From a virus, in the IMG/VR virus record IMGVR_UViG_3300005805_009577, positions 117,146 to 181,145 of that record: 64,000 bases of DNA; one strand, 5' to 3'. Both the position numbers and the translations under genes were made by a program. Below, one piece after another: positions 26,117-62,598 of this stretch. Position 1 is the stretch's first letter. Each line of letters begins with the position of its first letter. The notes under the pieces were generated by a model, which saw only the letters and a program-made list of their open reading frames with translations, did no database searches and had not been told where the DNA came from.

Positions 26117-26578
26117 CTAAATAAATTTTTCAGCTCGTTCATTAAAACAAATTCCGTTTAAATGGTCGAATTCGTGTTGAAAAACCCTAGCCAGATAACC
26201 ATTTAATTTACTGTTTGTCCACTCACCTTTTATATCTTGATAAGATACTTCTATAGAATCATATCTTTTAATTTTTAACATTAAATTTGGAAAGCTTAAA
26301 CAACCTTCATAGTCCGTATTCTTTTTTACGCTAACCTTTGTAATTATTGGATTAAAAAATGCTTGAGGTTTAATAAATCCCGGTATTTCATTTGACCCTA
26401 TTATAAATACTTGAGAATTTAATCCTATTTGATTTGCAGCAATACCAATTCCATTATGTTTTAACATAATTTCTATCATTAATCTTTCAGTTTCCACAGG
26501 ATCAATTTTTCCATTAAATTCAAAAGGATCTACTGATTTGTGCAGCATATCAAAAGGTTCGTATTTTAATTCATACAT
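26117..26578 (-). CDS. def: peptide deformylase
   Basis: GIGIAANQIG, EGCLS, HEFDHLNG signature motifs. Confidence 0.95.
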   Translation of the reverse strand: MYELKYEPFDMLHKSVDPFEFNGKIDPVETERLMIEIMLKHNGIGIAANQIGLNSQVFIIGSNEIPGFIKPQAFFNPIITKVSVKKNTDYEGCLSFPNLMLKIKRYDSIEVSYQDIKGEWTNSKLNGYLARVFQHEFDHLNGICFNERAEKFI

Positions 26579-32638: not shown

Positions 32639-33097
32639 TCAGTCGCTGTCTGCTGGGGCGTAGAACATACCTTCTTTTTGATCCCATACAATTGGTCCTT
32701 CGTAGCCCACTGATAAGGTTCCAGTTTCATGTACACGGAAAGGATATACTATACCGCTTAATGGAGGAAACATTAAGTGACCTGACATTCTGACACCTAC
32801 TGCTTCTTTAAGATGATCTGGATACCATGCTCCCATATGTTCTTTTCCAACTTTTTCTTTTGTTCCGTTAGGGCGATCTGTAACAAATATTCCGACAAAC
32901 TTTTTGCCGCCGTATACAGAATACATCCTGTCTCCATTTTTTGGTTCTTTGAACACTGAGAAAGATTTTAGTTGTTCTTGATTTTTATATTGGTTATCGT
33001 TTCCTTTTTCTCCAGCATTCTTATTGTGATATTTACTATTAAGGTTATTGTCTCCAAATTCGGTGTTTTCGGCAACCCAATCTTTAAATTTTTTCAT
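32639..33097 (-). CDS. hypothetical protein with MKKFKDWVAE N-terminus
   Basis: 152 aa, GGAGA RBS, TATAAATG upstream. Confidence 0.7.
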   Translation of the reverse strand: MKKFKDWVAENTEFGDNNLNSKYHNKNAGEKGNDNQYKNQEQLKSFSVFKEPKNGDRMYSVYGGKKFVGIFVTDRPNGTKEKVGKEHMGAWYPDHLKEAVGVRMSGHLMFPPLSGIVYPFRVHETGTLSVGYEGPIVWDQKEGMFYAPADSD

Positions 33098-33129
33098 AAT
33101 TTCTCCATTAATACATTTATATATTACAA

Positions 33130-33600
33130 TTAATTAAATTTTTTTAATATTTTCCAACCAAAACCTTCAATATCATTTTTTATTTGTTCCGTCACAAATC
33201 CTTCTTGCACATATGGTTCCCGAGCCTCTATGCCAGAGCAATACCAGTTTATATAATCGCCTTTTTGATTAAGACTAGCTACTATTCCGCCGGCATGTCT
33301 CCATGAACAATGCCATTTTATTTTGTCTTTAAAAAAGTCATTGTTGCATAGTGCTGCGTATAAATTTTGACTATAAACTTTTGAGTCTTGACATTTTTTA
33401 GAAACATCTTCCGAAGATCTTAAATCTTTTTCTAAGGATGTATCTTTTTCAGGCGTTAGATCTTTTATCCTTGCATCATCCCACATTTTTTTTAATGATT
33501 CAAATGTTTCTTTGCTTAGATTGCCACTTTCATACATTTTTTCTTGATTGTTTTTTTGAAAGGTATATCTTTCTGGACTTGTTGCGTAAAATTTATTCAT
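33130..33600 (-). CDS. conserved-looking hypothetical phage protein
   Basis: YSQNLYAALCNN...W.CSWR.AGGIVA...GDYINWYCSG; start set at MNKFY. Confidence 0.65.
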   Translation of the reverse strand: MNKFYATSPERYTFQKNNQEKMYESGNLSKETFESLKKMWDDARIKDLTPEKDTSLEKDLRSSEDVSKKCQDSKVYSQNLYAALCNNDFFKDKIKWHCSWRHAGGIVASLNQKGDYINWYCSGIEAREPYVQEGFVTEQIKNDIEGFGWKILKKFN

Positions 33601-33602
33601 AA

Positions 33603-34052
33603 TTAAACAAGCTTTATTATTTGTTGAGGAGAAGAACAACAACTGACGCCGCATTTTTCAGGAGCAAGACACGCAGTATGATTTTCGCCAGCATAAAATT
33701 TTATTATGCCTTCTGTTATTTCGTATTTATCTATAGGGTATTGTGAAACCGAATCTTTTTCATACTCAATAAAAACATTGGGAATATCATGCTCAAACAA
33801 GCTTTCGCCAAGATCAATGATCTTCAACATTTTATCCGAGTCTACTCGATGATCAAAATCGTTTGCAACCCAAATTTGCAGAACACACTTTTCTGTTTTT
33901 CTTTTTACGCCTCCGCAATCTATGAAAACCCTACTTTCCCTCCCAATCTCTGTTATATGAAAATGTAGCGGTATAATTTCATTTTGAAGATGAAAAGACA
34001 AATTTTTCTTTTGGTTTTTTAATAATATTTCTTTAAGTTGTTTTAAATTCAT
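33603..34052 (-). CDS. DUF6428-like protein
   Basis: HFHITEIG, FIDCGG, QIWVANDFDHR, HTACLAPEKCG...CC; the upstream ORF-track start lies inside a tRNA. Confidence 0.6.
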   Translation of the reverse strand: MNLKQLKEILLKNQKKNLSFHLQNEIIPLHFHITEIGRESRVFIDCGGVKRKTEKCVLQIWVANDFDHRVDSDKMLKIIDLGESLFEHDIPNVFIEYEKDSVSQYPIDKYEITEGIIKFYAGENHTACLAPEKCGVSCCSSPQQIIKLV

Positions 34053-34055
34053 AAG

Positions 34056-34128
34056 AGCGGGCGACCGGGTACGATCCGGCGACATTTTGATTGGAAATCA
34101 AATACTCTACCAACTGAGTTACACCCGC
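34056..34128 (-). tRNA. tRNA-Gly(TCC)
   Basis: TTTGA-TTTCCAA-TCAAA, acceptor GCGGGTG/CGCCCGC, U discriminator; T-loop variant GATCGTA. Confidence 0.85.
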
Positions 34129-34208
34129 AATTATTTTAATATAGTTTGTATCTTTTAATATTCTTCCAAATTCTTTATTTTTAACTAAATTATATTGAAG
34201 GAAAAATT

Positions 34209-34625
34209 ATGACAAAGCCAATAAATTTAAAAGATTTACCTGATTATCTTAAGAACATTAAAGAAAATAATTCTTATGGTGAAAACGTAGTTGTTGATAT
34301 GGGCAATATAGTTGTAGAGCCTGCTGGAAAAAATTACTTTTCATTTTTGGCCATTGGTTTGCTTTTTATTTTATTTTTTGGCGGACTAACAGCCTACAAC
34401 TTTTCTTTAAAAAACACAGAAACTATAATTTTAAGTTCAAGTAATAAAGAAGATATAAAGACAATATCTGATATTTTGATAAACAATGGTGTAAAAATTG
34501 TCTCAATAAAACAAAAAGAAGATGATACCTTTGAAATAAAATTTAATAAGCTAAAAGATTTAAACTCTTTTTTGGAAAATCTGCGTAAAAACAAACAACT
34601 AAAAAAAATAGAATTAAAAAATTAA
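34209..34625 (+). CDS. membrane-anchored hypothetical protein
   Basis: Single TM FSFLAIGLLFILFFGGL; GAAGGA RBS. Confidence 0.6.
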   Translation: MTKPINLKDLPDYLKNIKENNSYGENVVVDMGNIVVEPAGKNYFSFLAIGLLFILFFGGLTAYNFSLKNTETIILSSSNKEDIKTISDILINNGVKIVSIKQKEDDTFEIKFNKLKDLNSFLENLRKNKQLKKIELKN

Positions 34626-34702
34626 TAGCCCTTGACGATTTTTTGTTTTTTGAGACAATTTTTTTCTTGTTGTTTTGCCCGGCGTCCTTGTAAAAATAAA
34701 AA

Positions 34703-34900
34703 ATGAAAAGACAAAGTTGTTGTGCAATTATTTATTGCGATTATGGCAATCAAAAAACAAAAAAGCCGATAAGACTAAGCTATAGTCAAATTTCTGCAGC
34801 TAATAGCTGGAAAAAGTTTCATAAAAACTTTAGCAAAAATGGGTGGAGATGTTGGCAAGAAGATACTGAAGGAAATATTATAAACGATTCTAAAAAATAA
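34703..34900 (+). CDS. hypothetical protein
   Basis: 65 aa. Confidence 0.45.
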   Translation: MKRQSCCAIIYCDYGNQKTKKPIRLSYSQISAANSWKKFHKNFSKNGWRCWQEDTEGNIINDSKK

Positions 34901-34908
34901 CTTTTTTA

Positions 34909-35607
34909 TTAAATGTGAAATAAGAAATCTGGGCCGCCAATATGATCTATCTCATACCCCAGGCTCAATAAGTCTGCAAACTGTTCTTTGGTATATTCGA
35001 TATCAACTGTTCCTGCATCGTCTTTCCAATTTTCAAGAGTAATAGTTGGCTTGAACTTTTTAATAGTGTTAATCGCACCTTTAATAGCTAACACTTCATA
35101 TCCTTCTACATCTAGTTTTATAAAATCTAATTTTTCTAAATTTAAAGAATCTATTGTTACTAGTTCGCATTCAAATTCTTTGCCATCGTCATTTTTGGCG
35201 ATGACGGCTCCTCCCGGATTACCGCCTGTTATAGATTTGTAACTTTTTTGTTCTTTTCTGTCAGACAAACCTTTTTTATAAATTTTAACATTATTTAAGT
35301 TGTTTAATGTTACATTATTTTTTAAAAGATCAAAAGAGTGGCTTAATGGCTCAAAACAATGTAGTTCTCTACAAATTTTTGCCAATTTAATCGAATGTGT
35401 GCCTATATGACAACCACCTTCTAAAACAATGCTATTTTTATTTACATATTTTTCAAAAACTTTATGAAGGTGTGGTTCCCAAAATTCATTTTTTTTTAAA
35501 GTTTCACATATACAACAATTTTTATATAACTTAAAGAAGGCAGATTCTTCTTGATTATAATTTTTAAATTCTATCACATCCTCTAGATAATCATATTTAT
35601 CGATCAT
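34909..35607 (-). CDS. FkbM-family methyltransferase
   Basis: EGGCHIG, FEP, FIKLDVEGYE. Confidence 0.88.
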   Translation of the reverse strand: MIDKYDYLEDVIEFKNYNQEESAFFKLYKNCCICETLKKNEFWEPHLHKVFEKYVNKNSIVLEGGCHIGTHSIKLAKICRELHCFEPLSHSFDLLKNNVTLNNLNNVKIYKKGLSDRKEQKSYKSITGGNPGGAVIAKNDDGKEFECELVTIDSLNLEKLDFIKLDVEGYEVLAIKGAINTIKKFKPTITLENWKDDAGTVDIEYTKEQFADLLSLGYEIDHIGGPDFLFHI

Positions 35608-35741
35608 ATAATAAACGAGTAAGTATATTTTAATTTAAATTATACTTTTCTTTCTATCGGCTGCGGCGACTACTTTTCAAAAATAGACTTTTTAAAAAGC
35701 TGCGGTACTTGGTTTATTTAATACACTTCATATATATCTAT

Positions 35742-37127
35742 ATGTCAGGTAAATATTTAAGAGAATATTTTGGAGACACAGATTTTTATACTCCGTGTTT
35801 AGGTCTAGCCAGATCAAGCCTACCTGTTTATAGTGAATATATTCATATTCACGCAAAGTTGTTCTTCAATGTTTTAAATAAATTTAATTTAGAATTTTAT
35901 GTATTTGCCGGCACGGGCGTTGGATATGTTAGAAATAAATCTAATATTCCTTGGGTAGAAGACTACGATATACTAATTTTTGAAAAAGATATTAAACTTT
36001 TTGAAAAATTTATTATACCTGATTTAAAAAAATATGGATTTATTTTAAAAAGACCTTGGCGTAAAAGTGGCTGGTATGTGCTATCTGATAGAGAAAAAAA
36101 ACATTTTCAGTGCGATGTGTTTTATTCTAAAGTTTGTAAAAATAATATAGTTAGAAACTTAAATGGATGGGGTCTTTATCATAAAAAAAATATAAGCTAT
36201 GATATTGTTTCCCCACCTAGAACTTTAAAAATAGATGACTTAGAATTGCCTTTTTTTAACAAAGTAGAAGAAGATATACTTATAGAGTACGGAGATGTTA
36301 TAAACAATGTTTGTATACATATAAACCATAAAAACAAAAAAACAATAAATCAAAATTTTAATATTGTTTATAATGAATTTTATGAACTTTTAGAAAATCC
36401 TAAAAATAATACTTTAAAATACATTTTAACAAATAAAGAATATAAATATCAAAACAAGTGTATTTTAAATAGCGATATTAATTTTACATCTATATTTGAT
36501 ATACTTAATTATATAAGTCAAAATAATGTGAAAGATCTTCACATCGTAGACCAGAAATTTCTACAATATTGTTTAAGCATAAAATATTATTTTAAGGAAA
36601 TAAAAATAATATTTTATTTGTTAGAAGATATTGATAAAAGCAATTTAATATTTTTAAATTATATTGATTTTGTAAAATGTAGAAAAGATTTATCAATAAA
36701 GTATGAAGAAGATAAATTAATATATGTAAAAAATAAACCTACTTTTTTGCCTATAAATATTATAACTTTTGGCACTTATGATTTATTTCATGATGGGCAT
36801 TATAATATATTAAAAAGAGCCAAAAGCCTAGGAGACAAATTAATAGTAGGTGTATCAAGCGACGAACTTAATAATAAAAAAGGAAAATCTTCTATAAATA
36901 GTCTCCAAACAAGAATAAAAGACGTAGAAAAAACAGGATTTGTTAATTATTGTTTTATAGAAGAATCTTTAGATAAAAAAGATGAATATATTAATACTCA
37001 CCAAGCAGATATATTAATAATGGGTGACGATTGGAAGAACAAATTTGATTGGGTGTCTTGTCCTTGTATTTATTTGCCTAGGACGCCAGGAATATCAACT
37101 ACGGAATTAAAAAAAAATTATAATTAA
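35742..37127 (+). CDS. LicD-family phosphotransferase fused to TagD-like cytidylyltransferase
   Basis: N-terminal AGTGVGYVR...IPWVEDYD; C-terminal TFGTYDLFHDGH, VGVSSD, MGDDW, RTPGISTT. Confidence 0.82.
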   Translation: MSGKYLREYFGDTDFYTPCLGLARSSLPVYSEYIHIHAKLFFNVLNKFNLEFYVFAGTGVGYVRNKSNIPWVEDYDILIFEKDIKLFEKFIIPDLKKYGFILKRPWRKSGWYVLSDREKKHFQCDVFYSKVCKNNIVRNLNGWGLYHKKNISYDIVSPPRTLKIDDLELPFFNKVEEDILIEYGDVINNVCIHINHKNKKTINQNFNIVYNEFYELLENPKNNTLKYILTNKEYKYQNKCILNSDINFTSIFDILNYISQNNVKDLHIVDQKFLQYCLSIKYYFKEIKIIFYLLEDIDKSNLIFLNYIDFVKCRKDLSIKYEEDKLIYVKNKPTFLPINIITFGTYDLFHDGHYNILKRAKSLGDKLIVGVSSDELNNKKGKSSINSLQTRIKDVEKTGFVNYCFIEESLDKKDEYINTHQADILIMGDDWKNKFDWVSCPCIYLPRTPGISTTELKKNYN

Positions 37128-37661
37128 ATCCATTTTATTGGAGCAGTGTTTAGAAGACACTATAGCCTATGAAATATACTAGACAGAGCTATCTCAGGAT
37201 GACGTAATAAGATAAAACAACATATTTTGAGGAAAATAAATAATATTATGCCTTTATTCTTAAAAAATAAACTTGTTTCTATCGAAGACAAGATAAATCT
37301 ACTAAAGAACCAGTATATAGGAGATGGCTCTGGACCTTCATTAAATAAAGAGATAATCTATGAATAATATAAAAATTTAATTGAAAAATTGTCTTATCTT
37401 AATAATACATATAATATTGTAGGGGTAAAACAATCGTTTGAATACGGAAGGAGTTGTTTTTAATGATGTAGTCACCAGCATAACCGAGTTATGCGACTTA
37501 TCTTCTGATTTAATCTGCGAGAATATTTAGAGTACAACAACTATTTTGCAATATACTTTTCTTAATATCATAAAAAAGATAGAGGTAGTAGTTTATATGA
37601 AACTAATAGTAGGAAACTCGTCGCAAATATCAAAAGATATCTTTAATTTAAATTTATAAAG

Positions 37662-38459
37662 ATGAATATAGTTTACACACTAACGGTAGATTTTTTAAAT
37701 ACATTATCTGCTGATATGAATCTTGTTTCAGTTTGGTCTCTTCGGCACTCCAATCCCACAAACAGGATCATACTAGTTTGCGATCACACATCTCTTGGTA
37801 TATTAAAAGAAGTTAAACATAAAATACTAGACGAGATAGACTCTATAGTAGATGCGGGACAAATCAAGGGAGAAACAAACTATATAAATAGATTTATAAA
37901 AACATCATTAATTAATTATATAGATGGTGATTTTTTATATTTAGACGCTGACACATTTGTACGGAATGGCTTAGAGGGTTTTTATAATATAAAAGAAGAC
38001 TTAGTAGGAGTGGCTAATCATAATAATGTTGATCCTAGTATCATTACATGCGAGGAATTAGAAAAAATTAAGCATTTAGATTGGACTGTTCCTAAATTTT
38101 ATATAAACGGTGGGGTTTTATTCATAAAAAATAGTACTAATACTAGAAAATTTTATGAAATTTATCACAACAAATGGCAACAAAGTTGCAATAAACTAAG
38201 AGAACACAAAGACCAACACTGTTTAAATAGCACCATAGAAGACAGTGGGGTCATTCTCAAAATCCTTTCTGATATATATAATATGCAAGGTTATAATAAT
38301 TCGAGCAAAATAATAAAGCCACACCATCCAAAAGATACTATTATACATCATGTTTATGGGGATTTTTGGAAAGATTCTATATTTAGTAGTATATTAAATT
38401 ATGAAGATATAAATAATATTTTTGAAACACATAATAATATATGGAAACAAACAACATGA
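37662..38459 (+). CDS. GT8-like nucleotide-diphospho-sugar transferase
   Basis: FLYLDADT, YINGGVLF, DQ..LN, YN.Q. Confidence 0.7.
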   Translation: MNIVYTLTVDFLNTLSADMNLVSVWSLRHSNPTNRIILVCDHTSLGILKEVKHKILDEIDSIVDAGQIKGETNYINRFIKTSLINYIDGDFLYLDADTFVRNGLEGFYNIKEDLVGVANHNNVDPSIITCEELEKIKHLDWTVPKFYINGGVLFIKNSTNTRKFYEIYHNKWQQSCNKLREHKDQHCLNSTIEDSGVILKILSDIYNMQGYNNSSKIIKPHHPKDTIIHHVYGDFWKDSIFSSILNYEDINNIFETHNNIWKQTT

Positions 38460-38554
38460 AGATATTAGTTACAGGAGGGATTTTTTAATCTTTCAAACAA
38501 AGGCGGCAATAGCAATACAGAAGAAAAGCAACTAGACCAACAAAAGAAGAGTTA

Positions 38555-38716
38555 ATGAAGTGGATATGGGAAGAGCCTACAACAAAAATTGCGAAAAAAC
38601 TTGGTGTATCAGATAAGTCTGTTGAAAAATGGACTAAATATTATGAAATTAAAAAACCACCAAGAGGCTATTGGTCTAAACGCAATAAAATGCCCGAAGA
38701 GGAGTCGAACCTCTAA
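38555..38716 (+). pseudogene. remnant HTH domain of the type found at the C-terminus of phage homing endonucleases
   Basis: RPTKEELMKWIWEEPTTKIAKKLGVSDKSVEKW...KKPPRGYW; in-frame TAG just upstream, no nuclease domain. Confidence 0.5.
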
Positions 38717-38979
38717 CCTAGGGAACCACATACCACTATAACTTTCGTTACCCTTTCGGTTTAGTGGTCTGGACTTTACCTTCACCTTGGCCTTTCGGCT
38801 TTAGGCACCTCCCGTCAAGTCTCTACACCTTCCTATTGCTAGGCTTGGCTCGGTATTGGGTCACTTCTTGCAAAGTAGGCCGTTCACCGAATTTGAGAGG
38901 TTCTACTTCCAAAATTTCTTTTGGAGCATTCTGTTTTTTTAGGTCAAATCCCTTGCTCTACCAGTTAAGCTATCGGGCA
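38690..38979 (-). tRNA. tRNA-Gln(TTG) split by a group I intron (exons 38946-38979 and 38690-38728)
   Basis: Spliced product 73 nt: U1-A72 acceptor TGCCCGA/TCGGGCA, stem AGGGA/TCCCT, loop TT-T|TG-GT, T-arm AGAGG-TTCGACT-CCTCT. Confidence 0.85.
38729..38945 (-). ncRNA. group I intron, IC3-like, 217 nt, no ORF
   Basis: CTCTCAAATTCGG, CCGAGCCAAGCC, AAGGTGTAGAGACTTGACGG and AAGGTAAAGTCCAG cores resemble Azoarcus/Anabaena tRNA introns; begins after U, ends in G; IGS CAGAAT pairs with junction ATTT|TG. Confidence 0.9.
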
Positions 38980-39313
38980 ATTTGTATTTCTATTATAGTA
39001 AGGAAAAAAAATTTGTCAATTGCACTCCTATATAAATCCTTTTGTTTTTTCATTATAGATGCCATAAGATAAATTCCTGCTCTTGATCAGATACAGGTGT
39101 CTATCCTTGCATTCTTTCAGAGGTAAATAATTTACTTTAATTTCAGTCATTGCTTTACTACTATTCCTATTCAATAATTCCAAGTTCTTTGTTGGCGTGA
39201 TTGGATGCTTCTTCAATTGTGTCAAATGGCCCGTTGACAAAACTTTGGGAAAGTCCTCTGTTATACCGTTTCGCCATCCCGGAAAGAAAATTTATTATAT
39301 CGATAAATAAATT

Positions 39314-39737
39314 TTATTTCAAATTATTTAAATTTTCTATTTCAACTTTATCAATAAATATTTTATCAATTCTGCCTCCTTGTAGAATTTCTATTGGTTT
39401 TCCGTAAATCCATTTGGGATTATCCTCCCACCAATGCCTCCAAGATATTTTTAAACTTTTAAAAACTTCTATGCAATCTATATTTTTATCAAAAATTTCA
39501 CCTTCAATAACAATTTTTATCTCTTTTTTAAACTTCATTTTAACTCTTGTTTAAAATGTTAATAATTTCTTGTAATATTTTTTCTAGCTTATTTTTTTGA
39601 ATTGTTTTATTTTTTTGTTCAAAACTATATTTGCCAAACTCTTCAACAATCTCTATTGTATTTATATTGCATAAATCTTTATCAAATACATCTGGTTTGA
39701 TTTCAATAGAAGAGTATTTTCCAAGAAGTTTGAACAT
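39314..39737 (-). other. two small hypothetical ORFs (39314..39538, 39540..39737)
   Basis: Tandem - strand ORFs with a 1-nt gap. Confidence 0.5.
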
Positions 39738-39990
39738 ACATTTTAAATTATATTCATTTTAAATTATTTGTCAAACCTCAAAATTGTCTTCTAAACATTG
39801 CTCTAATAAAATGAATTTAATTATTTTTTTCCTATCCAATCTGGCCTGTTATAGAGTAAATTATTTGAAGAATCTACAAATAGAACTAGTGTGTATTTGT
39901 TGGATCCATAGCATTGTTCTAATTTTTCTAATACTAGTTGAAGTATGTCGAGTTTCACAAAACATTGGATGCCTATAACAAAATTATTTT

Positions 39991-41445
39991 TCATAAATCA
40001 TACTCTAATTTAGTAAAATTAATATTCGGATCAAAATCCCAAAAATAATTTGGATTCTTATTTTGGTTTAATTCAAGAAGTTTACTTTTAGACAAACAGT
40101 TTTCTTTTAATAAAGAATATAGCTCTTCATGAGATAGATGTTTATCAAATAGTGCGGATTGTCCGTCGTGGGAAACTTTTTGAAAGTTAGTTGCACTCCA
40201 CCCGTATATTCCTATGTGACCATGACGATTGGTTTCTGGGGCTATGGTGGTCATATTACGATTTTTTAAAATATTGTTTATCATATGATCATTATCTTTA
40301 ATACTCCATACGGGGTCAAAGTCTTGTCTATTTTTTTGTTCTTCTACCCATTTCTTTATAGTTTCAAATTTTTTTCTATTGATTAGAATAGACCTACTGG
40401 ACGCTCCGCTTCTAACTATTTTATTAGGATTTCCTTTTGGTTTTTCCCATGCTCCTGCATGAAAATACAATATATTATCATCTTTTGAAAGGGCTCCATC
40501 ATGCAAAGATAATTGCTCGCACATTCTTAAATAATCTTTGCTGATTAACACATCGTCTTCTATGGTTATCACATACTCATAATCTGTATTATCAAATATA
40601 TATTTTACACTATCATACCAGCTATACTTACCACTATTTTTAGTCCAATTTATTCTTTTGTATTCATCTGTTATTACCTTGTCATAGTCTGACACTATTC
40701 CGTGTTCCTTATGAGGATCAACAAAAATATAAGTTTCAAATTTATCAGAATGCTCTGCTTCTTTTTGATACTCCAAAGACAACTGCAACATTGCTGATCT
40801 ATCATAGTATGTTGGTCTAACTACTACAATAGTATTATTATAGCAATTGCCATATTGATTATAAAAATTAGCATATTCACCTAAAACGTTGGTCTCAATC
40901 AAATCTGAATCTTTGGCATTTTGAAATGCTAGTGTGAACTCTTTTTTTGGAGCATATATTTTTAAATTATCAAAATATATTTTTTCTGTACAGTCCATTT
41001 TATATGTGTCTAGTATTTGTTTAATGCTTTTTCTATGAATTAGTATACCATGAGTACCAAACATCATAGAAGATAAGAGACATGTATGATCAGATATATT
41101 TTCTGTCAGTGACTTGTAGCAGTGTAGACTAAATACGCCCCAATCATATGGTAGTTCAGATACATACCGTATTAATTTCGAATTAAAGTTTTTAGCTAGA
41201 ATGGTATCGTCTTCTAAAATCAGTACATATGGATAATTATTATCATATGCATGTTGAAGCAATGCCAAATGGCTCATTGAACATGCTAAAACGGATGGGG
41301 TAATATTATTTTGTTTATGGTCAACAGCTGACCACCTGCGTACATTGTATAAATTATGTTTTTTAAATTCTTCTTGCATTGCAGACCACCGATCTGGTCT
41401 ACGATCAAGATTAATACAAAAGATAGATATATCAGCAATGTTCAT
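39991..41445 (-). CDS. GT25-family glycosyltransferase fused to a second GT-like domain
   Basis: INLDRRPDRW, ACSMSH, LILEDD; second domain RP.YY...TIEDDVL. Confidence 0.8.
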   Translation of the reverse strand: MNIADISIFCINLDRRPDRWSAMQEEFKKHNLYNVRRWSAVDHKQNNITPSVLACSMSHLALLQHAYDNNYPYVLILEDDTILAKNFNSKLIRYVSELPYDWGVFSLHCYKSLTENISDHTCLLSSMMFGTHGILIHRKSIKQILDTYKMDCTEKIYFDNLKIYAPKKEFTLAFQNAKDSDLIETNVLGEYANFYNQYGNCYNNTIVVVRPTYYDRSAMLQLSLEYQKEAEHSDKFETYIFVDPHKEHGIVSDYDKVITDEYKRINWTKNSGKYSWYDSVKYIFDNTDYEYVITIEDDVLISKDYLRMCEQLSLHDGALSKDDNILYFHAGAWEKPKGNPNKIVRSGASSRSILINRKKFETIKKWVEEQKNRQDFDPVWSIKDNDHMINNILKNRNMTTIAPETNRHGHIGIYGWSATNFQKVSHDGQSALFDKHLSHEELYSLLKENCLSKSKLLELNQNKNPNYFWDFDPNINFTKLEYDL

Positions 41446-42112
41446 AATTTTCTGGTGGACTGCCGTAGTAATGTGGATGTTCGGTTTTTTTTATTTCATA
41501 ATATTTATTATTTGGATAATAATATAGTATCCATCTTTCACATAGCCAATATCTGTGTTCAATAGAGAGGTCAGTATAATCTTCTCTTATTTTAGGTAAA
41601 GTTCTAATATACGATGTTTTTGACCACCAAAAATTACCACTAAAATGCATTTTGTGGTTTTCGTTTACTAATTTATCAGCTGTGCCTATATCAGTTAGAT
41701 TGATACCCACTATATCATAGTTATTAAGATAATTTATGCATTGTTTATAATTTCTAATTAGATAATGCTCAAGCATTTTTCTCCATAGCCATACATTATG
41801 ATTATGAGGATGTGATACCCCTTTGGTATGTATGTATAAAATATTAGATTCGTTAGTTTGAGACCACTCTAAAAGCTTATGTAAGCACGGTCTTTCGTAT
41901 TCTTTATATTTATTGGTATAATTAATTAATTGAATTTTATTATGTTTATTAAGTAAAAAATTAATATTTTCTTTATTTGCACCAGTATAACATACGTAAA
42001 CTCGCTCGATATTATCAAGCAGTCCAGATTCATACAACGATTCGTACTGGTCTATTACTATGTCTCTAAAATTATTTAGTTCACATATATGCCAAAAGAT
42101 ATTAGTATTCAT
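41432..42112 (-). CDS. glycan-related hypothetical protein
   Basis: LYIHTKG, HFSGNFWWS, ERWI; cluster context. Confidence 0.55.
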   Translation of the reverse strand: MNTNIFWHICELNNFRDIVIDQYESLYESGLLDNIERVYVCYTGANKENINFLLNKHNKIQLINYTNKYKEYERPCLHKLLEWSQTNESNILYIHTKGVSHPHNHNVWLWRKMLEHYLIRNYKQCINYLNNYDIVGINLTDIGTADKLVNENHKMHFSGNFWWSKTSYIRTLPKIREDYTDLSIEHRYWLCERWILYYYPNNKYYEIKKTEHPHYYGSPPENYEHC

Positions 42113-42156
42113 TTTTATTAATTATTTCTGTTAAGATAGTCATCTTCTAATCTAAT

Positions 42157-43173
42157 TTAGTCACCTAAACCTCTATATAAAGCTTCGAGACGAGATCTTC
42201 CACGCACCATATCTGGTTCAAGAAAAGCACCTTCTGCCCACTCATTCCAAGCATTAATAAACATGAATTCTTTTTTGTTGTCTAGTGTTTGTTTTTTAGC
42301 CTCTCTAACCCAATTTTCAAAAATATTTATTGCTGAGTTGTCTTGATGATATATGACAGCGTCCGACATTAGCCTGGGAGTATTGTCCCAGGCTGGACAA
42401 ACTGTTTTAAATTGACATGTCTGGTCAGCAATACAGTGTTCGTAAAGCGTGGAGTAGTCTTTAATCCGACCTACAAAATTATTTTTTGTGATTAATGACG
42501 TATTTATATTTGGATTGTTCCACGTTCTATGAGGAGGAAACTGAATAACGCCTTCAAGCCCCATATCTTGATAATTATAATGCTCAAAGCTTCCGCAGCC
42601 TAATAATAAAACTCTGCTACCTAAATAAGTTTTTAGTCGATGAACAAACTCAATACTTTCTTGACTTTCGTGTGGTCTATAAATGATAAATAATGGTCTA
42701 TCATTATCATCTTTTATATAATGACAATTGTTAAAATGTTCTTTTTGCAAATATTCTGCTAAATCATAAGGGTTCGAATATAATTGTTTAATCAAACATT
42801 CTCCCTTACTATCATCTCCGTCCCATCTTCTAGTCCAAGATTCATTAGCCCAACACAAAGCATAAGGAGTATTTCCTTGAGAAAATTTCTTTATGGCTTC
42901 ATTCATCAAAACCTTGCCATTACAAAACCAATATAAATAAGGTATAAATCCGTCAATTCCATATTCATTAGCTAGAGAAAACTGTTCCTCTAATATGTTA
43001 GGGAGCCTCAAGTCATAAAACCCTAATTCTGATGGTATATTAGGCTGAAGATGTCCTTCGTATTGAGGCGTTGCTCTAGCAACATTACGCCATTCTGTAA
43101 AGCCCTTTCCCCAAAATTCATCATTTTCTATGAATGGATGAAATTGCGGTAAGTAAAAAGCAAGTGTTTTCAT
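42157..43173 (-). CDS. WbsX/GH99-like glycosyltransferase
   Basis: AFYLPQFH..ENDEFWGKGFTEW, YDLR, WANESW, NAWNEWAEG..LEPD. Confidence 0.85.
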   Translation of the reverse strand: MKTLAFYLPQFHPFIENDEFWGKGFTEWRNVARATPQYEGHLQPNIPSELGFYDLRLPNILEEQFSLANEYGIDGFIPYLYWFCNGKVLMNEAIKKFSQGNTPYALCWANESWTRRWDGDDSKGECLIKQLYSNPYDLAEYLQKEHFNNCHYIKDDNDRPLFIIYRPHESQESIEFVHRLKTYLGSRVLLLGCGSFEHYNYQDMGLEGVIQFPPHRTWNNPNINTSLITKNNFVGRIKDYSTLYEHCIADQTCQFKTVCPAWDNTPRLMSDAVIYHQDNSAINIFENWVREAKKQTLDNKKEFMFINAWNEWAEGAFLEPDMVRGRSRLEALYRGLGD

Positions 43174-43174
43174 A

Positions 43175-44260
43175 TTATATCATACACATTTGAGCAAAAA
43201 TTTGTTTTGCCATTATTGAAATATCATGATTGGCAATTACATGTTTTTTAAATTTATTACCTAATTCTAATCTATTGTTAACATTTTGTTTTAGTTCTAT
43301 TATTTTTTTACTAAAAGATTCTATGTCTAAATGAGGTATAACAAGAGTACTATCAATTTGAGATACAAGTTCTGGCATACCCCCAGCTTTTTCAAAACAA
43401 ATTACTGGTTTGCCAAAAGATGATGCTTCTAAACACACTAATGGAAATGGGTCTTCTCTTGAGGTTAATGCAAATATGTCTGAGGAAAGCATATAATCTG
43501 ATACATTTGTTTTTTCTCCTACAAAAAACACTAACTTTTCTAGTCCTAAGTTATTAATATCACGACTTATTTTTTCAGAATTTTCCATCAAAGAGCCAAC
43601 CCAAATAAAATAAGTAGGACTATCGGATAGTTTATTAGTTACATTTGCTAAATCTATAAATAAGTCATAGCCTTTTCTCCAATCGGATGTTCCGCAACCA
43701 ATAACAACAAAATCATTTGCGGAAAGCCCTAGCTCTTGTCTTATATCTGTAGTTAAATATATTTTTTGATAATCAATACTTGGTATGCCCTCGTATATGA
43801 TTGATATTTTTGAATCAGAAATATCATGGTTTTCTATAAGGTTTTGCTTTGTCACTTCTGATACTGCTATATATTGATCTACAAGATTTTTACTTTCATT
43901 GAAAAAATTTATCCCACAATAATTTTGAATGGAGTTTTCAAGTTCGTGAACCATTAAAATTGCTTTAGCTTTTGTGTGTTTTTTTAATTCTATCAACACT
44001 TCACAAGAGCAACAAGTATTAGCAAATATTATATCAAAATTTTCTTGTTTAACTAGTTCCAGTATTTTACTTCTATCTTCACTATTCCAAATATAAGTGT
44101 TTGAGATATTTCTATATTCATTTTCTAACTCTCCTCCATTTTTAAGAACAATAGAAAAGTTGATTTCGCAAGTCTTTTTTAAGTTTCTTAATATATGAAG
44201 TAACACTATTGGCGAGCCATTTCTATGTGCGTCATGTCCTATAAATAATACTTTTTTCAT
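43175..44260 (-). CDS. GT4-family glycosyltransferase
   Basis: GCGTSDWRKGYDLF, LTSREDPFPLVCLEA...GKPVI. Confidence 0.88.
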   Translation of the reverse strand: MKKVLFIGHDAHRNGSPIVLLHILRNLKKTCEINFSIVLKNGGELENEYRNISNTYIWNSEDRSKILELVKQENFDIIFANTCCSCEVLIELKKHTKAKAILMVHELENSIQNYCGINFFNESKNLVDQYIAVSEVTKQNLIENHDISDSKISIIYEGIPSIDYQKIYLTTDIRQELGLSANDFVVIGCGTSDWRKGYDLFIDLANVTNKLSDSPTYFIWVGSLMENSEKISRDINNLGLEKLVFFVGEKTNVSDYMLSSDIFALTSREDPFPLVCLEASSFGKPVICFEKAGGMPELVSQIDSTLVIPHLDIESFSKKIIELKQNVNNRLELGNKFKKHVIANHDISIMAKQIFAQMCMI

Positions 44261-44305
44261 ATAATTTTCTTTCTTAGAGTAATGTATTTTGTTGTTTTTA
44301 CAAGT

Positions 44306-45226
44306 TTAATTTTTAACTAATTTATTGATCAAAAAAGGCTTGTAGGTTGTTCTATCGAAATTCAAATACTTTCCTAGTTTTTTCTGTCCTTCGCCTTTAT
44401 AACAGCCCATCATCGGCCAAAAAGTCATTTCGCCAGCATAGATACGATCACTCGAACAATATAAATCAACTCTGACACATTTAAAACCTTTGCTTAAATT
44501 TTCAGCAACAGCAATCATTTGATCCCAAACAAGGGGTTTTTTGAAATCTGTACCTAGCTTGAAACTCGGATATAATTCTGTTGCTAAATCATTCCCTTCG
44601 GGATCAATGGTTTGTTCTTTTGTATCAAATCCACGATCATAAATATAGTGAACAAATTTAACAATGCCTTCAACACAGTAAAATTTATAGTCTGGGGGTT
44701 GCTTTGAATTTTGATGATCAATAAATTCCTCAATAAAAACTTTAGGTTGAATGTAACGATAAGCCCATTCGCCATTTTCCCAACCGTATAATCGTTGTAG
44801 TGATGCTTCAATTTTAGCTTCGGCCGCTTGATAGTCAAGTTTTGATTTATCTCTTACTAAAATAACTGTTCCTGAGTCATGGTTAGCTTTGATCACAAAA
44901 GATTGAGGCAAGCTATCAAAATCAATTTCTGAAAAATGATTATGCACTTGATATAGTTTTACTAAATATTCTTCACCAACCCGTTCGCGAACATAATCCC
45001 TAACTAGAATTTTATCGGAACATCTAACAATTTCTGGACTTTGATCAAATAATTTTAACCACTGAATTTTATCGTTAAAATCACGACAGTTAATTAAGTT
45101 AGGAAAATCCCGTAGTCCTTTCCAGCATAGTTTGTGAATAATAGTGTAAAGTTCATAGTGTTCTGAACTCAATGGAAGATTTTGTACGTCACTATTCCAT
45201 TTTTCTTTAATTTTTTCTGATAACAT
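44306..45226 (-). CDS. TupA-like ATP-grasp protein
   Basis: FNDKIQWLKL, DKILVRDYV, FVIKANHDSG, DYKFYC, RVDLY...GEMTFWP. Confidence 0.85.
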   Translation of the reverse strand: MLSEKIKEKWNSDVQNLPLSSEHYELYTIIHKLCWKGLRDFPNLINCRDFNDKIQWLKLFDQSPEIVRCSDKILVRDYVRERVGEEYLVKLYQVHNHFSEIDFDSLPQSFVIKANHDSGTVILVRDKSKLDYQAAEAKIEASLQRLYGWENGEWAYRYIQPKVFIEEFIDHQNSKQPPDYKFYCVEGIVKFVHYIYDRGFDTKEQTIDPEGNDLATELYPSFKLGTDFKKPLVWDQMIAVAENLSKGFKCVRVDLYCSSDRIYAGEMTFWPMMGCYKGEGQKKLGKYLNFDRTTYKPFLINKLVKN

Positions 45227-55832: not shown

Positions 55833-56294
55833 ATGAATTTTAAAAAATGGCTAAACGAATACACTGCAGTTGGTCTAAAAGGTTTGTTTAGAAATACATG
55901 TGGGGATAAAAGTTGTAGCAGAGGCAGTTCTCTCTGGTTGCCGGACTTTGAGTCTGGCTCTGTTGCTAAAGACGATAAATTTACACAAGTTCCTTTAAAT
56001 TTTGGCCAAAATACAAAGGGATATTATGACGAAGATAATAATAGATTTTCTCTGGTTATCGAGGTTTCGCAGATATTAAAAGATAAAAATAGAAATTCCT
56101 TAATCGAACAATTACTCCAAAAATCTCGGCAAAACATAGAAGGAATTAATCAAAATAAAATATTAAGTTTTATAAATAGCAAAATAAATCAAAACCAACA
56201 ACAGTTGGTTTCTAATGATAAGTTTAATCAATTAAAATATTTTAAAAATTATATTGCAAAAGATTCTCTTATAATTGTGTATCAATTAATTTAA
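55833..56294 (+). CDS. hypothetical protein with MNFKKWLNE N-terminus
   Basis: 153 aa. Confidence 0.6.
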   Translation: MNFKKWLNEYTAVGLKGLFRNTCGDKSCSRGSSLWLPDFESGSVAKDDKFTQVPLNFGQNTKGYYDEDNNRFSLVIEVSQILKDKNRNSLIEQLLQKSRQNIEGINQNKILSFINSKINQNQQQLVSNDKFNQLKYFKNYIAKDSLIIVYQLI

Positions 56295-56300
56295 TTTTTA

Positions 56301-57812
56301 ATGAAAACAATAATAAGATGGACAATTGGAGATGTCTCCGACCAAGGTTTGGAGTGTCTCAATCTATCCATAAAAAATATGACTGATTTTTATGGATATA
56401 ATGATTTCTACTACTTTATTTGTCATAACAATATTTCAAAAAAAAAATTAAACTCTATTGGAAATTCAAAAATTAATCTTTTAGATCAAGAGAAGTTCAC
56501 AGAATCGCTTCCAATAGCCCCATCTAAAGAGTATGGAGTATCTTGGAAGCTATATCCTCCAAGAATAGATGTAGAAAGAAATGAAATTTTCATGGATAAT
56601 GATATAGTTTTTCATAAAAAAATAATTTTAGATGAATTTAAAGATTATTTTTTGATTTCAGAGGCGATAAATCGCTCTTATGGATTTTTTGATAATAAAG
56701 TAATATCAAAAAGAAACATGAATAGCGGTTTTTTTAAATTACTTCCTGGGTATGATTTTGCAAAAAAACTTTCTAACACGATTTTGGAATTTGATTTTAA
56801 TTGGACTTCGTATTTTGATGAACAAGGTTTGGTTTCTTATATAATTAGCAAAGAAAACCATTTGGTTGTAGGTTTAGACAAACTAACAATAACACATAAT
56901 AATTTTGATAATTTTATAGGAGAATATGGCACACATTTTATTGGTATAAACTTTATGGGCGGTGGTATTAATCCTTATTGGAACCGATATAAACAAATTT
57001 TTGATGATTCAATTATAGATTTTGAAAATTTAAAACTTTTATTAAATTCAGAAGAGTGGCCACGAGCAGTGTCTACCGCCCAGATAGCAGACGAAAATTT
57101 AGAAAAAGAAAAAAAAGAAAGGGCAGAAGGAATAGTGGATATTATGTTGTCCTATTCTCTAGAAAACAAGAAATTTTTAGATTTGGGGTGTGGAGAAGGA
57201 CATATAGCAAAGCATATTTCTGACCGGGCGGAGGTTTCAGTCGGATATGATTTAGATAATTCAAAATCAAAATTTAAATGGGAATCCAAAGAAAACAAAA
57301 TGTTACTCACAACAAATTTTGAAAAAGTTAAATCAGAAGGACCGTATGATATTATTCTAATATATGATGTATTGGATCATGTAGAAGAAGAAACAATGAA
57401 AAGCTTACTTGAAAAAGCCAAATCAGTACTTACTGAAGAAGGGCGAATATATTTGAGATGTCATCCTTGGTCTGGTCGTCATGGTGGTCATTTATATAAA
57501 ATAAACAAGGCATTTGTACATCTTGTTTTTACAAATGAAGAGCTTAAAAAAATGAATATTGATCAAGGATTTAATAGAAAAATTATCGCCCCCATAGAAA
57601 CATATAATAACGCTATAGACGAAGCTGGTTTATCTAGAATAGAGGAAGAAGTTGATTTTCAAGAACCAGAACCCTTTTTTTCAGTAAACAAAATAATATG
57701 GAAAAGAATTTTAAAAGCATTTAAAAATGAATTGGAATGGGAAAAAGACAATATTATATTTCAAATGTCTCATTCTTTTGTGGACTATGTCCTGGTCAAA
57801 AAGATTGTTTAG
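56301..57812 (+). CDS. GT-like domain fused to class I methyltransferase
   Basis: FMDND, NSGFF, FDEQG; C-terminal FLDLGCGEG, YDVLDH. Confidence 0.75.
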   Translation: MKTIIRWTIGDVSDQGLECLNLSIKNMTDFYGYNDFYYFICHNNISKKKLNSIGNSKINLLDQEKFTESLPIAPSKEYGVSWKLYPPRIDVERNEIFMDNDIVFHKKIILDEFKDYFLISEAINRSYGFFDNKVISKRNMNSGFFKLLPGYDFAKKLSNTILEFDFNWTSYFDEQGLVSYIISKENHLVVGLDKLTITHNNFDNFIGEYGTHFIGINFMGGGINPYWNRYKQIFDDSIIDFENLKLLLNSEEWPRAVSTAQIADENLEKEKKERAEGIVDIMLSYSLENKKFLDLGCGEGHIAKHISDRAEVSVGYDLDNSKSKFKWESKENKMLLTTNFEKVKSEGPYDIILIYDVLDHVEEETMKSLLEKAKSVLTEEGRIYLRCHPWSGRHGGHLYKINKAFVHLVFTNEELKKMNIDQGFNRKIIAPIETYNNAIDEAGLSRIEEEVDFQEPEPFFSVNKIIWKRILKAFKNELEWEKDNIIFQMSHSFVDYVLVKKIV

Positions 57813-57872
57813 ATATTAAAAAAAATTAAAAAGATTCTCTTATAATTGTATATCAATTAATTTGAATTAGTA

Positions 57873-58550
57873 ATGAACGCAGTAATAATAAGCGATATAC
57901 ACCTGGGCAGCGATATTTGCCAAAGCAAAAAACTAAAAGAGTTTCTTTTTCAAATAGAGCACAATGTAATACAGGTTGATGAAATTATAATAAACGGCGA
58001 TCTATTTGATAGTTTGGATTTTAGAAAATTAAAAAGCAGTCATTGGAAAATTTTAAGCAGCTTAAGAAGTTTGACTAAAACAAAACATGTTGTTTGGATA
58101 AATGGCAATCATGACGGGCCAGCGTGCTTTATATCTCATGTTATCGGTGTTGATTTTGTAGAAGAATATAAATTTAAAAGTGGAGAAAAGAACTTTATAA
58201 TTTTACATGGAGATAAGTTTGATAACTTTATAACTAAATATCCAGTTTTAACTAAATTAGCAGATAAAATATATAGGTTTATTCAAAAACTAGATAAAAG
58301 TTTTTATTTAGCTAATTTAGCCAAAAGAAATAGCAAGACTTTTTTGCGTTGTAGCGAACAAATTAAACAAAGAGCTATAGGGTATTGCCTACAAAATAAA
58401 GCAGATGTAATATGTTGTGGCCATACTCATTTAGCACTAGAGACAAAAACTTCTAAAGTTCACTATATTAATAGTGGTTGTTGGACCGAAGAATGTTGTA
58501 GTTATATTTTAATTACAGAACAAAATGTAGAATTGAAAAAGTTTAATTAA
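57873..58550 (+). CDS. metallophosphoesterase, UDP-2,3-diacylglucosamine diphosphatase-like
   Basis: SDIHLG, GD.FD, GNHD, HGDKFD, CGHTH, NSGCW. Confidence 0.82.
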   Translation: MNAVIISDIHLGSDICQSKKLKEFLFQIEHNVIQVDEIIINGDLFDSLDFRKLKSSHWKILSSLRSLTKTKHVVWINGNHDGPACFISHVIGVDFVEEYKFKSGEKNFIILHGDKFDNFITKYPVLTKLADKIYRFIQKLDKSFYLANLAKRNSKTFLRCSEQIKQRAIGYCLQNKADVICCGHTHLALETKTSKVHYINSGCWTEECCSYILITEQNVELKKFN

Positions 58551-59275
58551 TGTCCATCTTTTCTATCATGGGTAAAGATTCCAAAACCAAATATACATTT
58601 ATAATTTTTTTGTGACCAAATAGGCGTTAAAGTTTTTTCTATATTTTCTCCATTTTTTAAATAAGGATAAATGGCATTGTAAAAAAAATCTTTTTTACAC
58701 ATATATGGATTATTTGTGTAGTTGCAACTGGCTGATGAAGTCATATACCAATCTTCTTTTATCTTGGTTATTTTATCGGGATAAACTAGTTCTGGATGCT
58801 CGACCCAATACATACATTCTGAAAGATGTTTACTTTTAATAAACGAGGATGGAGGTATTTGGCTTAAATTCATTTTTGCATAATTAGGATGTCCTGGATT
58901 TTTTCTGCTTCTACCTCTTACTAAATCTGCTGTGTTTTTATTTAAAAAATAAATAGCATTTTCTAAATAGTATTTAACTTCTTTTTGATCACAGTAAGTG
59001 CAAAAGTCATTTTCTAAAAATAATATTATTTCATTTTTAGCGTTATTAAATATTTCTCTAAATCCGGAGGCCATCAAGCCGTTATCAGGCATTTTTATAC
59101 TTTTTACTGAAAATTGACTACAGATATTTTCTTCTTCTTCTTGTTTTTTAGAATTTTGAAGTATACAAAATATATCATCTGTTTCTTCTATTAGTCTACT
59201 ATTTTTATAAGAAAGTAGTGTGTTTTTCAAGGTGCTTGGAGCATTATAAGATAATATACCTATTGATATTTTCAT
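58547..59275 (-). CDS. GT2-like hypothetical protein
   Basis: GILSYN, LFLENDF; cluster context. Confidence 0.5.
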   Translation of the reverse strand: MKISIGILSYNAPSTLKNTLLSYKNSRLIEETDDIFCILQNSKKQEEEENICSQFSVKSIKMPDNGLMASGFREIFNNAKNEIILFLENDFCTYCDQKEVKYYLENAIYFLNKNTADLVRGRSRKNPGHPNYAKMNLSQIPPSSFIKSKHLSECMYWVEHPELVYPDKITKIKEDWYMTSSASCNYTNNPYMCKKDFFYNAIYPYLKNGENIEKTLTPIWSQKNYKCIFGFGIFTHDRKDGH

Positions 59276-60267
59276 TTTTGACCTCTTATTCTATTAATCA
59301 AATTTTCCCAGCAATCTAATACTTTAGTTTCTAAAAAGTTTTCACTAAGGCTTACTTTTGGTCTATTATAGTAGAAAGACAATAATAGTTTTTCAAATTG
59401 TTCATAACTTTTTAAATCACAAGTATATTCGTTGTTAATAAATTCATGCATTCCATTTATCAAATTTGTAGCTATTACTGGTGTTTTCAAATAATATGAT
59501 TCCGCAAAAGTGCAACCGAAAGTTTCTGGGAACTCTGTTGATACTACACATAAAGACGATTGAATTAAACTGCTGTATATTTTTTTATCTCTAACCACGT
59601 CGTGCAACCTAATATATGGCTTGTTTATCAAACTTGGTAAATTTATTTTCCCGTAACTAGGACTTAGAACATTTAAATAAAAATTTGGATATTTAGCATA
59701 TAAATTGTCAAATAACTTTATTATAACATCTAATCCTTTTTTCCAAGCAGAAGCAAAAGTTATTGAATTTTTATCAACTTCTATTTTATCATCATACCGG
59801 TATACCTCTGTATAGAGTGCATTATATATGACTGAAATATTTTCTTTATTTATTTTTAAACTATTTTTATGGAACTCACTCACGGCCACAACTTGAATTT
59901 TATTATTGTTAATTAACTCTGAGACCTGTTCGGATAAACCTATTCCTTTGTAATCATGAGACCAGACTATTAATCTTTTTGGATTATAAAATTTAATAAT
60001 ATTTGGCACTATATCAAAAAACCGCCAAAAAATTAATGGAACATCTTTTTCGATATTTTTATTATAAATTAAATCGTTATAATCTCTATATAATATGTTG
60101 TCAATTTTTTCATAAATTCCAGATCTATTGAAACAAGTAACATTAAAACCGTTGATTGATAATTGTTTGGCTAGGAGACAAATTTGAAATTCCGACGCAC
60201 CACTCCCTGCATTCAGTACACTTTTATGATTTAAATGATTGTTCCAAGCCAAATAGACAGAATTCAT
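59272..60267 (-). CDS. GT4-like glycosyltransferase
   Basis: GASE, KKGLD, FPETFGCTFAES...PVI. Confidence 0.75.
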   Translation of the reverse strand: MNSVYLAWNNHLNHKSVLNAGSGASEFQICLLAKQLSINGFNVTCFNRSGIYEKIDNILYRDYNDLIYNKNIEKDVPLIFWRFFDIVPNIIKFYNPKRLIVWSHDYKGIGLSEQVSELINNNKIQVVAVSEFHKNSLKINKENISVIYNALYTEVYRYDDKIEVDKNSITFASAWKKGLDVIIKLFDNLYAKYPNFYLNVLSPSYGKINLPSLINKPYIRLHDVVRDKKIYSSLIQSSLCVVSTEFPETFGCTFAESYYLKTPVIATNLINGMHEFINNEYTCDLKSYEQFEKLLLSFYYNRPKVSLSENFLETKVLDCWENLINRIRGQK

Positions 60268-60353
60268 AATTGTATTTATGCAAAAAAGATAATAAATACT
60301 ACTATATATTGGAAAAAATATTTTATAGTTAAATGTCGATAAAAGAGTAATTT

Positions 60354-62597: not shown

Positions 62598-62598
62598 T

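Follow-up and report, generated by a model that had tools for sequence, protein, structure and literature searches.

The question raised by this locus is whether a phage gene for tRNA-Gln(UUG) can be the host of a group I intron and, if so, what keeps the intron in place. The classical settings of such introns in bacterial tRNA genes are four, namely Leu.3Ug, Arg.5Ug, fMet.2Ug, and Ile2.5Ug. According to the available part of the survey by Williams, the settings have been expanded to 21 on the basis of 80,413 bacterial genomes, and the seed alignment comprises 22 tRNA settings, including Arg.3Ug, Lys.3Ug, Thr.3Ug, and Ser.3Ug, with neither Gln nor Glu among them (Williams, bioRxiv 10.1101/2020.01.27.920355). 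As described there, the survey covers bacterial and archaeal assemblies, and phages lie outside it. In phages, all group I introns known at the time of the review by Hausner et al. were located in protein genes (Hausner, Hafez and Edgell, 2014; PMC3984707). Later, “enigmatic” introns were described in the tRNA genes of Lak megaphages and were presented, in the accessible part of that work, as the first introns of phage tRNA genes (Devoto et al., 2019; PMC6784885). No report of a group I intron in a tRNA-Gln gene, or in any phage tRNA gene, was found in the literature.

The DNA analyzed here, hereafter the window, is a stretch of 64,000 nucleotides that corresponds to bases 117146–181145 of a 181,145-bp IMG/VR virus record (G000) with an estimated completeness of 78%. 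A first-pass annotation of this stretch had proposed a group I intron in the anticodon of a tRNA-Gln and had regarded Gln as not being a known host, with a reservation as to recent reports; the latter is upheld for the four classical settings and for the 22 seed settings given in the available part of the Williams preprint. The reading that we favor, with high confidence, is that a large tailed phage with rIIA and rIIB has here a functional tRNA-Gln(UUG) gene, split by an ORF-less group I intron which would be a selfish or near-neutral passenger. This reading is built on the anatomy of the gene, homology, covariation, the matching of guide and exon, and exon conservation, all of them observed directly, and from these we infer the splicing, its independence from proteins, and the mode of intron spread. 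The novelty of the case is the host tRNA and the type of genome; the 34/35 site is classical, the guide is re-tuned, and the mechanism is ordinary.

Anatomy of the Split tRNA Gene

Two tRNA halves are found on the minus strand between 38979 and 38690, 217 nt apart. ARAGORN with intron search, run on the whole 181-kb record, calls them as tRNA-Gln(ttg) at window 38690–38979 (minus strand; c[155835,156124] in record coordinates) with a 217-nt intron at position 35. This is the check that the first-pass annotation had suggested, and its outcome coincides with the gene, the intron length, and the U34/U35 insertion claimed there. The 5′ exon (38946–38979, minus strand) covers tRNA positions 1–34, that is, the 5′ strand of the acceptor beginning with U1, the D arm, the 5′ strand of the anticodon stem, and the loop bases U32, U33, and U34, and ends in ...AGGGAUUU. 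The intron (38729–38945, minus strand; 217 nt), recognized by the Rfam model RF00028, by the family model R1 described below, and in the alignments A1 and A2, begins with G and ends in ...UAUG, its terminal G being 38729. The 3′ exon (38690–38728, minus strand) begins with UGGUUCCCU and covers positions 35–72 plus the discriminator U73; the CCA end is absent from it. The insertion point is thus between U34 and U35, inside the anticodon.

When the exons are joined at this point, the predicted junction reads ...GGGAUUU|UGGUUCCC... and the spliced RNA is a canonical cloverleaf of 72 nt plus the discriminator, with a U1-A72 pair and the anticodon loop UUUUGGU. Spliced in silico, this sequence is called by ARAGORN as tRNA-Gln(ttg) with a 7-nt loop. 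U34|U35 is the sole junction that combines a U before the 5′ site (paired to G in P1), a terminal G at the end of the intron, and a 7-nt loop. The U at the exon end, the terminal G, the U1-A72 pair, and the loop had all been read by the first-pass annotation, and each is borne out. The U1-A72 pair distinguishes the Gln-type hosts in alignment A2, where it is present in 4/4 Gln rows and in 0/12 of the other rows. The discriminator is more variable among the Gln genes considered below: U73 in the window and in L006, A73 in L020, L199, and L378, and G73 in L367. G73 is an identity element for the GlnRS of E. coli, yet it is not universal, and many bacteria charge tRNA-Gln via GluRS plus GatCAB.

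A sigma-70-type promoter candidate (TTGACA-N16-TATAAT, 12/12 consensus positions) lies at 38992–39019 on the minus strand, and 12 nt separate the end of its -10 box from the 5′ end of the tRNA; as a consensus match, it may be the promoter in use. The split gene was not detected by ARAGORN in its default mode or by the Rfam tRNA model. ARAGORN with intron search found no second tRNA-Gln in the 181-kb record, which is 78% complete, so an intron-less tRNA-Gln could sit in the missing part. In the long ORFs of the record, CAA accounts for 82% of the Gln codons. As the gene is missed by standard finders, the phage appears to be without a tRNA-Gln, even though it uses mainly CAA for Gln. The same intron search also reported a “tRNA-Ile(aat)” with a 62-nt intron at record positions 26411–26546, outside the window; R1 gives no match there, and this may be a false call.

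Fold of the Intron and Membership in Group I

RF00028 matches 38746–38956 on the minus strand over model positions 1–253, with 40.4 bits and E-values of 8e-9 (region) and 5.1e-10 (genome). The RF00028 test, also proposed in the first-pass annotation, thus gave a significant full-length match, with a score that falls below the gathering score of 50. At the gathering threshold, Rfam reports no intron in the window, and the match surfaces only under an E-value threshold. The family model R1 is a covariance model of 11 introns, mostly from tRNA-Leu(UAA) genes and otherwise from Lys, Arg, and Glu tRNA genes, all in other phages and none in Gln. R1 gives the intron 188.6 bits (E 2e-52) with ends exactly at 38729–38945, and this is its single match in the 181-kb record. 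In addition, tRNA-Leu(UAA) introns of phages can be aligned with the entire intron, with a core identity of 73–80%. Together, the full-length RF00028 match and the R1 score substantiate the claim of a group I intron that belongs with the tRNA introns of bacteria. The IC3 label may be applied by likeness to the introns cited as IC3 by Williams (2020).

The layout from P1 to P9 was drawn by hand. The guide CAGAAU (38928–38933, minus strand) pairs across the splice junction AUUU|UG as the first-pass annotation had described, and the pairing corresponds to P1 plus P10. P1 consists of 4 bp between exon AUUU (A31-U34) and guide GAAU, in which U34 (38946) forms the U-G wobble with G49; this wobble is present in 15/16 family members. 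P10 is just 2 bp, between UG (U35-G36) and CA. P2 (38908–38925, minus strand) is a 7-bp hairpin with a GAAA loop, and 7/7 of its pairs are changed on both sides among 16 members. P3 (38900–38895 with 38813–38808, minus strand; CCUCUC/GGGAGG) is 100% paired, with 5/6 pairs compensatory, and the P3 domain (38808–38900, minus strand) encloses P4, P5/P5a, and P6/P6a. P5a, an extension specific to the window and about 11 nt long, forms a clean hairpin with a GCAA (GNRA) loop. The P7 domain (38772–38821, minus strand) is closed by GACU (38821–38818) with AGUC (38775–38772), P7 being presumably the guanosine-binding helix, and encloses P8 (38807–38783, minus strand), which is 97% paired and covaries. 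The 3′ strand of P8 is CAAGG in the window vs. UAUGG in most relatives. The P9 domain (38733–38767, minus strand) is three-way, with CCAC/GUGG and two small hairpins with GAAA loops, and these inner hairpins covary (CC-GG vs. CA-UG and UAAC-GUUA vs. UAGU-ACUA).

In the 16-sequence alignment, 95.4% of the cells hold standard pairs, as compared with 32–45% when the partners are slid. Both sides are changed in 43/69 pairs, a value that 0/500 shuffles reach. The covarying helices are P2, P3, P6a, P8, and the inner P9 hairpins, while P4, P6, and P7 are invariant in 16/16 sequences, which makes them uninformative for covariation and compatible with a catalytic core. Every core helix is intact in the window intron, which also keeps the core positions that never vary in the family. 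The short P10, the RF00028 score below the gathering cut-off, and the discriminator U73 in place of G73 count against the favored reading, and the variant 3′ strand of P8 or the extra P5 hairpin could lower the activity. On balance, this is a real group I intron, very probably active, in a functional phage tRNA-Gln(UUG) gene; that it splices, and does so independently of proteins, is a prediction. The intron has no ORF of its own. An ORF of 102 aa antisense to it (38764–39072, plus strand) was dismissed since the conservation tracks base pairs and not codons.

Relation to Known Introns

Compared with the Williams catalog, in the part that is available, the intron belongs to the same family and has the same “3Ug” geometry, and the mapping rule used there, based on U-1 and the terminal G, has also been applied here (bioRxiv 10.1101/2020.01.27.920355). 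The closest classical counterpart is the tRNA-Leu(UAA) intron of cyanobacteria and plastids, which shares the insertion between 34 and 35, the U-1 in a U-G wobble, the terminal G, the lack of an ORF, the size of about 200–250 nt, and the core strings AAAUUCGG, CCGAGCCAAG, GGUGUAGAGACU, and AGUCCAG. It differs in the host (here Gln(UUG)), in the guide (GAAU/CA in the window vs. GAGU/UUU), in the genome (a phage vs. a cyanobacterium or plastid), and in the extra P5a hairpin of the window. The intron also resembles a bacterial intron of about 205 nt located in a tRNA anticodon loop, which is small, has GNRA-capped P2 and P9, and lacks P5abc, a likeness of described architecture; unlike the window intron, inserted after nt 34, the bacterial one is inserted after nt 36 and has a different guide (PMC13168695).

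Among phage elements, the Lak inserts are also found inside tRNA genes, but in the accessible part of their description they are not called group I, whereas the window harbors a bona fide group I intron (PMC6784885). The introns of T4 td, nrdB, and nrdD, and those of Twort and SPO1, are likewise group I introns of tailed phages and often mobile via homing endonucleases; unlike the window intron, which lacks an ORF, they interrupt protein genes and belong to other subgroups (PMC3984707). The present case contradicts the review-level statement that confines phage group I introns to protein genes, and extends the list of known group I hosts among tRNAs by Gln (and Glu, see below).

Other tRNA-Gln Introns and Matching of the Guide

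Targeted scans of viral and metagenome contigs raised the number of distinct Gln introns to six, on four tRNA bodies: those of the window, L006, L020 (identical to L167 and L185), L199, L367, and L378. L006 sits in the 187.6-kb contig G001 and L199 in the 251-kb contig G002, while L367 and L378 are metagenome contigs. All six have U1-A72, U-1, and a terminal G and, when spliced in silico, are called as tRNA-Gln by ARAGORN. Two of them score above the gathering score of RF00028 (L006, 61.2 bits; L367, 59 bits). A Gln-specific pattern yielded 0 true matches in genome contigs among the matches listed, which were mostly chance, and 2 true matches in metagenome contigs among the matches listed, the rest being mostly chance. 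An exact scan with a 20-mer of the intron core gave no match.

The guide covaries with exon position 32: an AUUU exon is accompanied by GAAU or GGAU, an ACUU exon by GAGU. GAGU is found in the Leu introns and also in those Gln introns whose exon is ACUU. Similarly, the P10 bases of the guide are UUU in Leu introns (3′ exon AAA) vs. CA, CG, or UG in Gln introns (3′ exon UGG). Judged from these pairings, the guide has been re-tuned to fit the exons of tRNA-Gln. In the AU test, monophyly of the Gln introns received p 0.048 with six rows and p 0.165 with five rows, on a weakly supported tree, so that a single Gln clade is not clearly rejected. We claim that host switches occurred, without giving a number, the phylogeny being too weak for that.

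Related Phages and Conservation of the Exons

The record of the window contains rIIA and rIIB genes, and because of these, beside the IMG/VR record itself, it is assigned to a phage; the Pfam models for terminase, T4 gp23, and NCLDV capsid gave no match in the record. G000, G001, and G002 are related but distant phages, with rIIA proteins 50% identical, and each has a Gln intron. The Gln exons of G000 and G001 (5′ exon at L006:719–752) are identical at 73/73 positions, while the intron cores are 82% identical, with indels. Exons that remained unchanged while the intron drifted by 18% and rIIA to 50% identity point to selection on the mature tRNA, and would be hard to explain unless mature tRNA-Gln is produced and used.

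The Gln intron is the sole family intron present in all three phages. G001 has four family introns, in Gln, Lys, Leu, and Met tRNAs, and G002 has four as well, in Gln, Arg, Leu, and Met tRNAs; the phage of the window has a single one, in Gln. For two of the tRNAs split in G001, the window has intron-less orthologues. One is the tRNA-Lys(UUU) at 2378–2451 (plus strand), whose orthologue in G001 (L126:660–932) has a 200-nt intron after U34; ARAGORN wrongly reports this orthologue as a Leu(taa) gene interrupted at 37/38, and the U-1/terminal-G rule assigns it to Lys. The other is a 74-nt tRNA with anticodon UAA at 15594–15667 (plus strand), called Leu by its anticodon alone and, unlike bacterial tRNA-Leu with its long variable arm, provided with a short one. 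Its orthologue in G001 (L126:1456–1729) holds a 200-nt group I intron, and L014 and L015 have the body type of this same tRNA. Directly 3′ of the split UAA tRNA, G001 encodes a tmRNA (L126:1775–2138; Rfam 123 bits; ARAGORN tag GTVNYAMAA), and no tmRNA was found in the record of the window.

The intron cores of the Gln gene L199, the Arg gene L070 on the same contig, and the Leu gene of G001 are 92–93% identical (92% for the Gln and Arg introns of G002), closer than some Gln introns are among themselves. Such nearly identical introns with different guides in Gln, Arg, and Leu tRNAs are valuable material on the conquest of new sites.

Distribution of the Intron Family in Phages

A scan of IMG/VR with a conserved core pattern returned at least 118 contigs, in which the calls were remapped by the U-1/terminal-G rule, a few of them by hand. 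Among the matches listed, the core is located inside an ARAGORN split tRNA gene in 59 contigs, about 49 of them Leu(UAA) and the remainder Arg(UCU) and Met(CAU), with a single Gln, a single Glu(UUC), and a doubtful Ile(UAU). In the tRNA-Glu(UUC) gene, on an IMG/VR contig (L044:477–748), the family intron is 199 nt long and follows U34. As judged from these matches, introns of the family are frequent in the tRNA genes of phages, chiefly in Leu(UAA), yet unannotated, and the rarity implied by the first-pass annotation is not borne out.

The nearest matches in GenBank phage DNA are introns of tRNA-Leu(UAA) genes, likewise missing from the annotation. Atu_ph07, a cultured jumbo phage of Agrobacterium, has a 278-nt intron in this gene (L002:1452–1813; MF403008.1, about 112.9–113.3 kb), and a deposited “hypothetical protein” CDS (AUZ94936.1) overlaps the last bases of the intron and the 3′ exon. 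The 735-kb uncultured phage LR756501 has one of 205 nt (L003). RF00028 finds neither intron at E-values up to 0.001, but R1 gives them 157.9 and 215.3 bits, respectively. Since Rfam is blank on introns that R1 recognizes, Rfam-based surveys under-count introns of this kind. The same blind spot hides split tRNAs in cultured phages, Atu_ph07 being an example, and leaves short “hypothetical proteins” at the gene edges.

Some family members are longer. Four tRNA-Leu(UAA) introns of about 700 nt in IMG/VR contain an ORF of 160–190 aa with a common N-terminal motif (L058:2833–3321; L060:880–1422, minus strand; L064:9316–9795; L066:3297–3863, minus strand). Two of the four ORFs were profiled: that of L058 scores close to the Pfam cut-off with HNH endonuclease models, and that of L066 gives no HNH match.

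Proposed Mechanism and Alternative Explanations

According to the model that we propose, the gene would be transcribed by the host RNA polymerase from the consensus sigma-70 promoter and the intron would fold into P1–P9. A free guanosine bound at P7 would then attack after U34, held as a U-G wobble by the guide GAAU. The terminal G (38729) would next fill the guanosine site and U34 would attack the 3′ splice site, with the exons aligned by the 2-bp P10 plus the anticodon stem. The product, with the loop UUUUGGU, would subsequently undergo RNase P cleavage, 3′ trimming, CCA addition, and modification of the wobble base. As to its origin, the intron may have spread among phage tRNA genes that have a ...U33-U34 site via re-tuning of the guide, and, without an endonuclease of its own, may have persisted in tRNA-Gln in this phage lineage. 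A selfish or mobile element is most likely because the presence of the introns is variable, cores 92–93% identical occur across different tRNAs, a long member carries an HNH ORF, and the window intron has no ORF.

Some features of the window intron might be taken as signs of decay, so that the split gene would be a tRNA pseudogene whose ribozyme no longer splices or needs an absent protein helper. The RF00028 score under the gathering cut-off, the window-specific P5a insertion with the variant 3′ strand of P8, and the short P10 are compatible with such a relic. Nevertheless, it is very unlikely: the core helices are intact and their invariant positions kept, R1 scores the intron at 188.6 bits, the P5a insert is itself a clean GNRA hairpin, the consensus promoter has been retained, and the exons have stayed identical at 50% rIIA identity despite the drift of the intron. 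Even less probable, to the point of being hardly credible, is that splicing occurs at another junction and yields a tRNA with a different anticodon (e.g., GUG, His) or a non-decoding one. ARAGORN does misplace the junction in several relatives, with calls such as SeC(tca), Tyr(ata), and Phe(aaa), which makes automatic calls alone unsafe, and the top BLAST matches of the spliced tRNA body are mostly annotated as tRNA-Lys, although such matches are not isotype-diagnostic. But only U34|U35 satisfies the geometry described above, a GUG anticodon would require an intron ending in U, the gene lacks the G-1 of tRNA-His, and the U1-A72 pair is that of the Gln-type hosts.

A different matter is whether the phage profits from the intron. 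The first-pass annotation had suggested that it protects the precursor from anticodon nucleases or times its maturation, and in a broader form the intron would be retained to delay or condition the maturation of tRNA-Gln (e.g., in response to the GTP level) or to evade an anticodon nuclease or an endonuclease directed at the tRNA gene. Two observations fit this idea: G000, G001, and G002, with their 50% rIIA identity, have all kept the Gln intron and share no other intron of the family, and the hosts Leu UAA, Lys UUU, Gln UUG, Glu UUC, and Arg UCU are all wobble-U tRNAs of two-codon boxes. In tRNAs of this type U34 is hypermodified, and they are the targets of some anticodon nucleases. Nonetheless, we regard an adaptive role as unlikely. 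The intron could shield only the precursor, while the known anticodon nucleases cut the mature tRNA, beyond its protection; as for timing, nothing in the locus or in the relatives points there, no associated gene or regulatory feature was found near the tRNA-Gln gene, whose neighbors are glycosyltransferases, and the pattern of a selfish or neutral mobile element fits better. Moreover, the introns of other tRNAs come and go freely, the common UU site is simply a requirement of the guide sequence, and the persistence in Gln is equally explained by the difficulty of a precise deletion from an essential anticodon. A more ambitious proposal combines mobility and benefit: one ORF-less IC3 lineage would actively move among the tRNA genes of large phages at ...U33-U34 (Leu UAA, Lys UUU, Gln UUG, Glu UUC, Arg UCU), re-tuning its guide, plausibly by reverse splicing, and the Gln copy would be kept across phages with 50% rIIA identity for the benefit of the phage, either as immunity to a tRNA-targeting endonuclease or by gating the supply of tRNA-Gln. 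To this we assign a small but appreciable chance; if true, these genes would be a natural record of ectopic transposition. The passenger intron in a working tRNA-Gln gene remains the preferred explanation.

Genomic Neighborhood

The neighbors of the tRNA-Gln gene are glycosyltransferases and a cytidylyltransferase, not endonucleases. A homing endonuclease next to the gene was considered and rejected, as the upstream ORF of 265 aa is a family-8 glycosyltransferase. On the other side, an ORF of 53 aa (38555–38716, plus strand) runs antisense to the 3′ exon over the final 27 nt of the latter; its HTH matches are sub-threshold and it may be no gene. More generally, the regions 33000–45000 and 56000–63600 of the window form a long sugar-modification run, with GT8, GT25, and GT2-like glycosyltransferases, LicD/cytidylyltransferase, a methyltransferase, and a UDP-glucose dehydrogenase.
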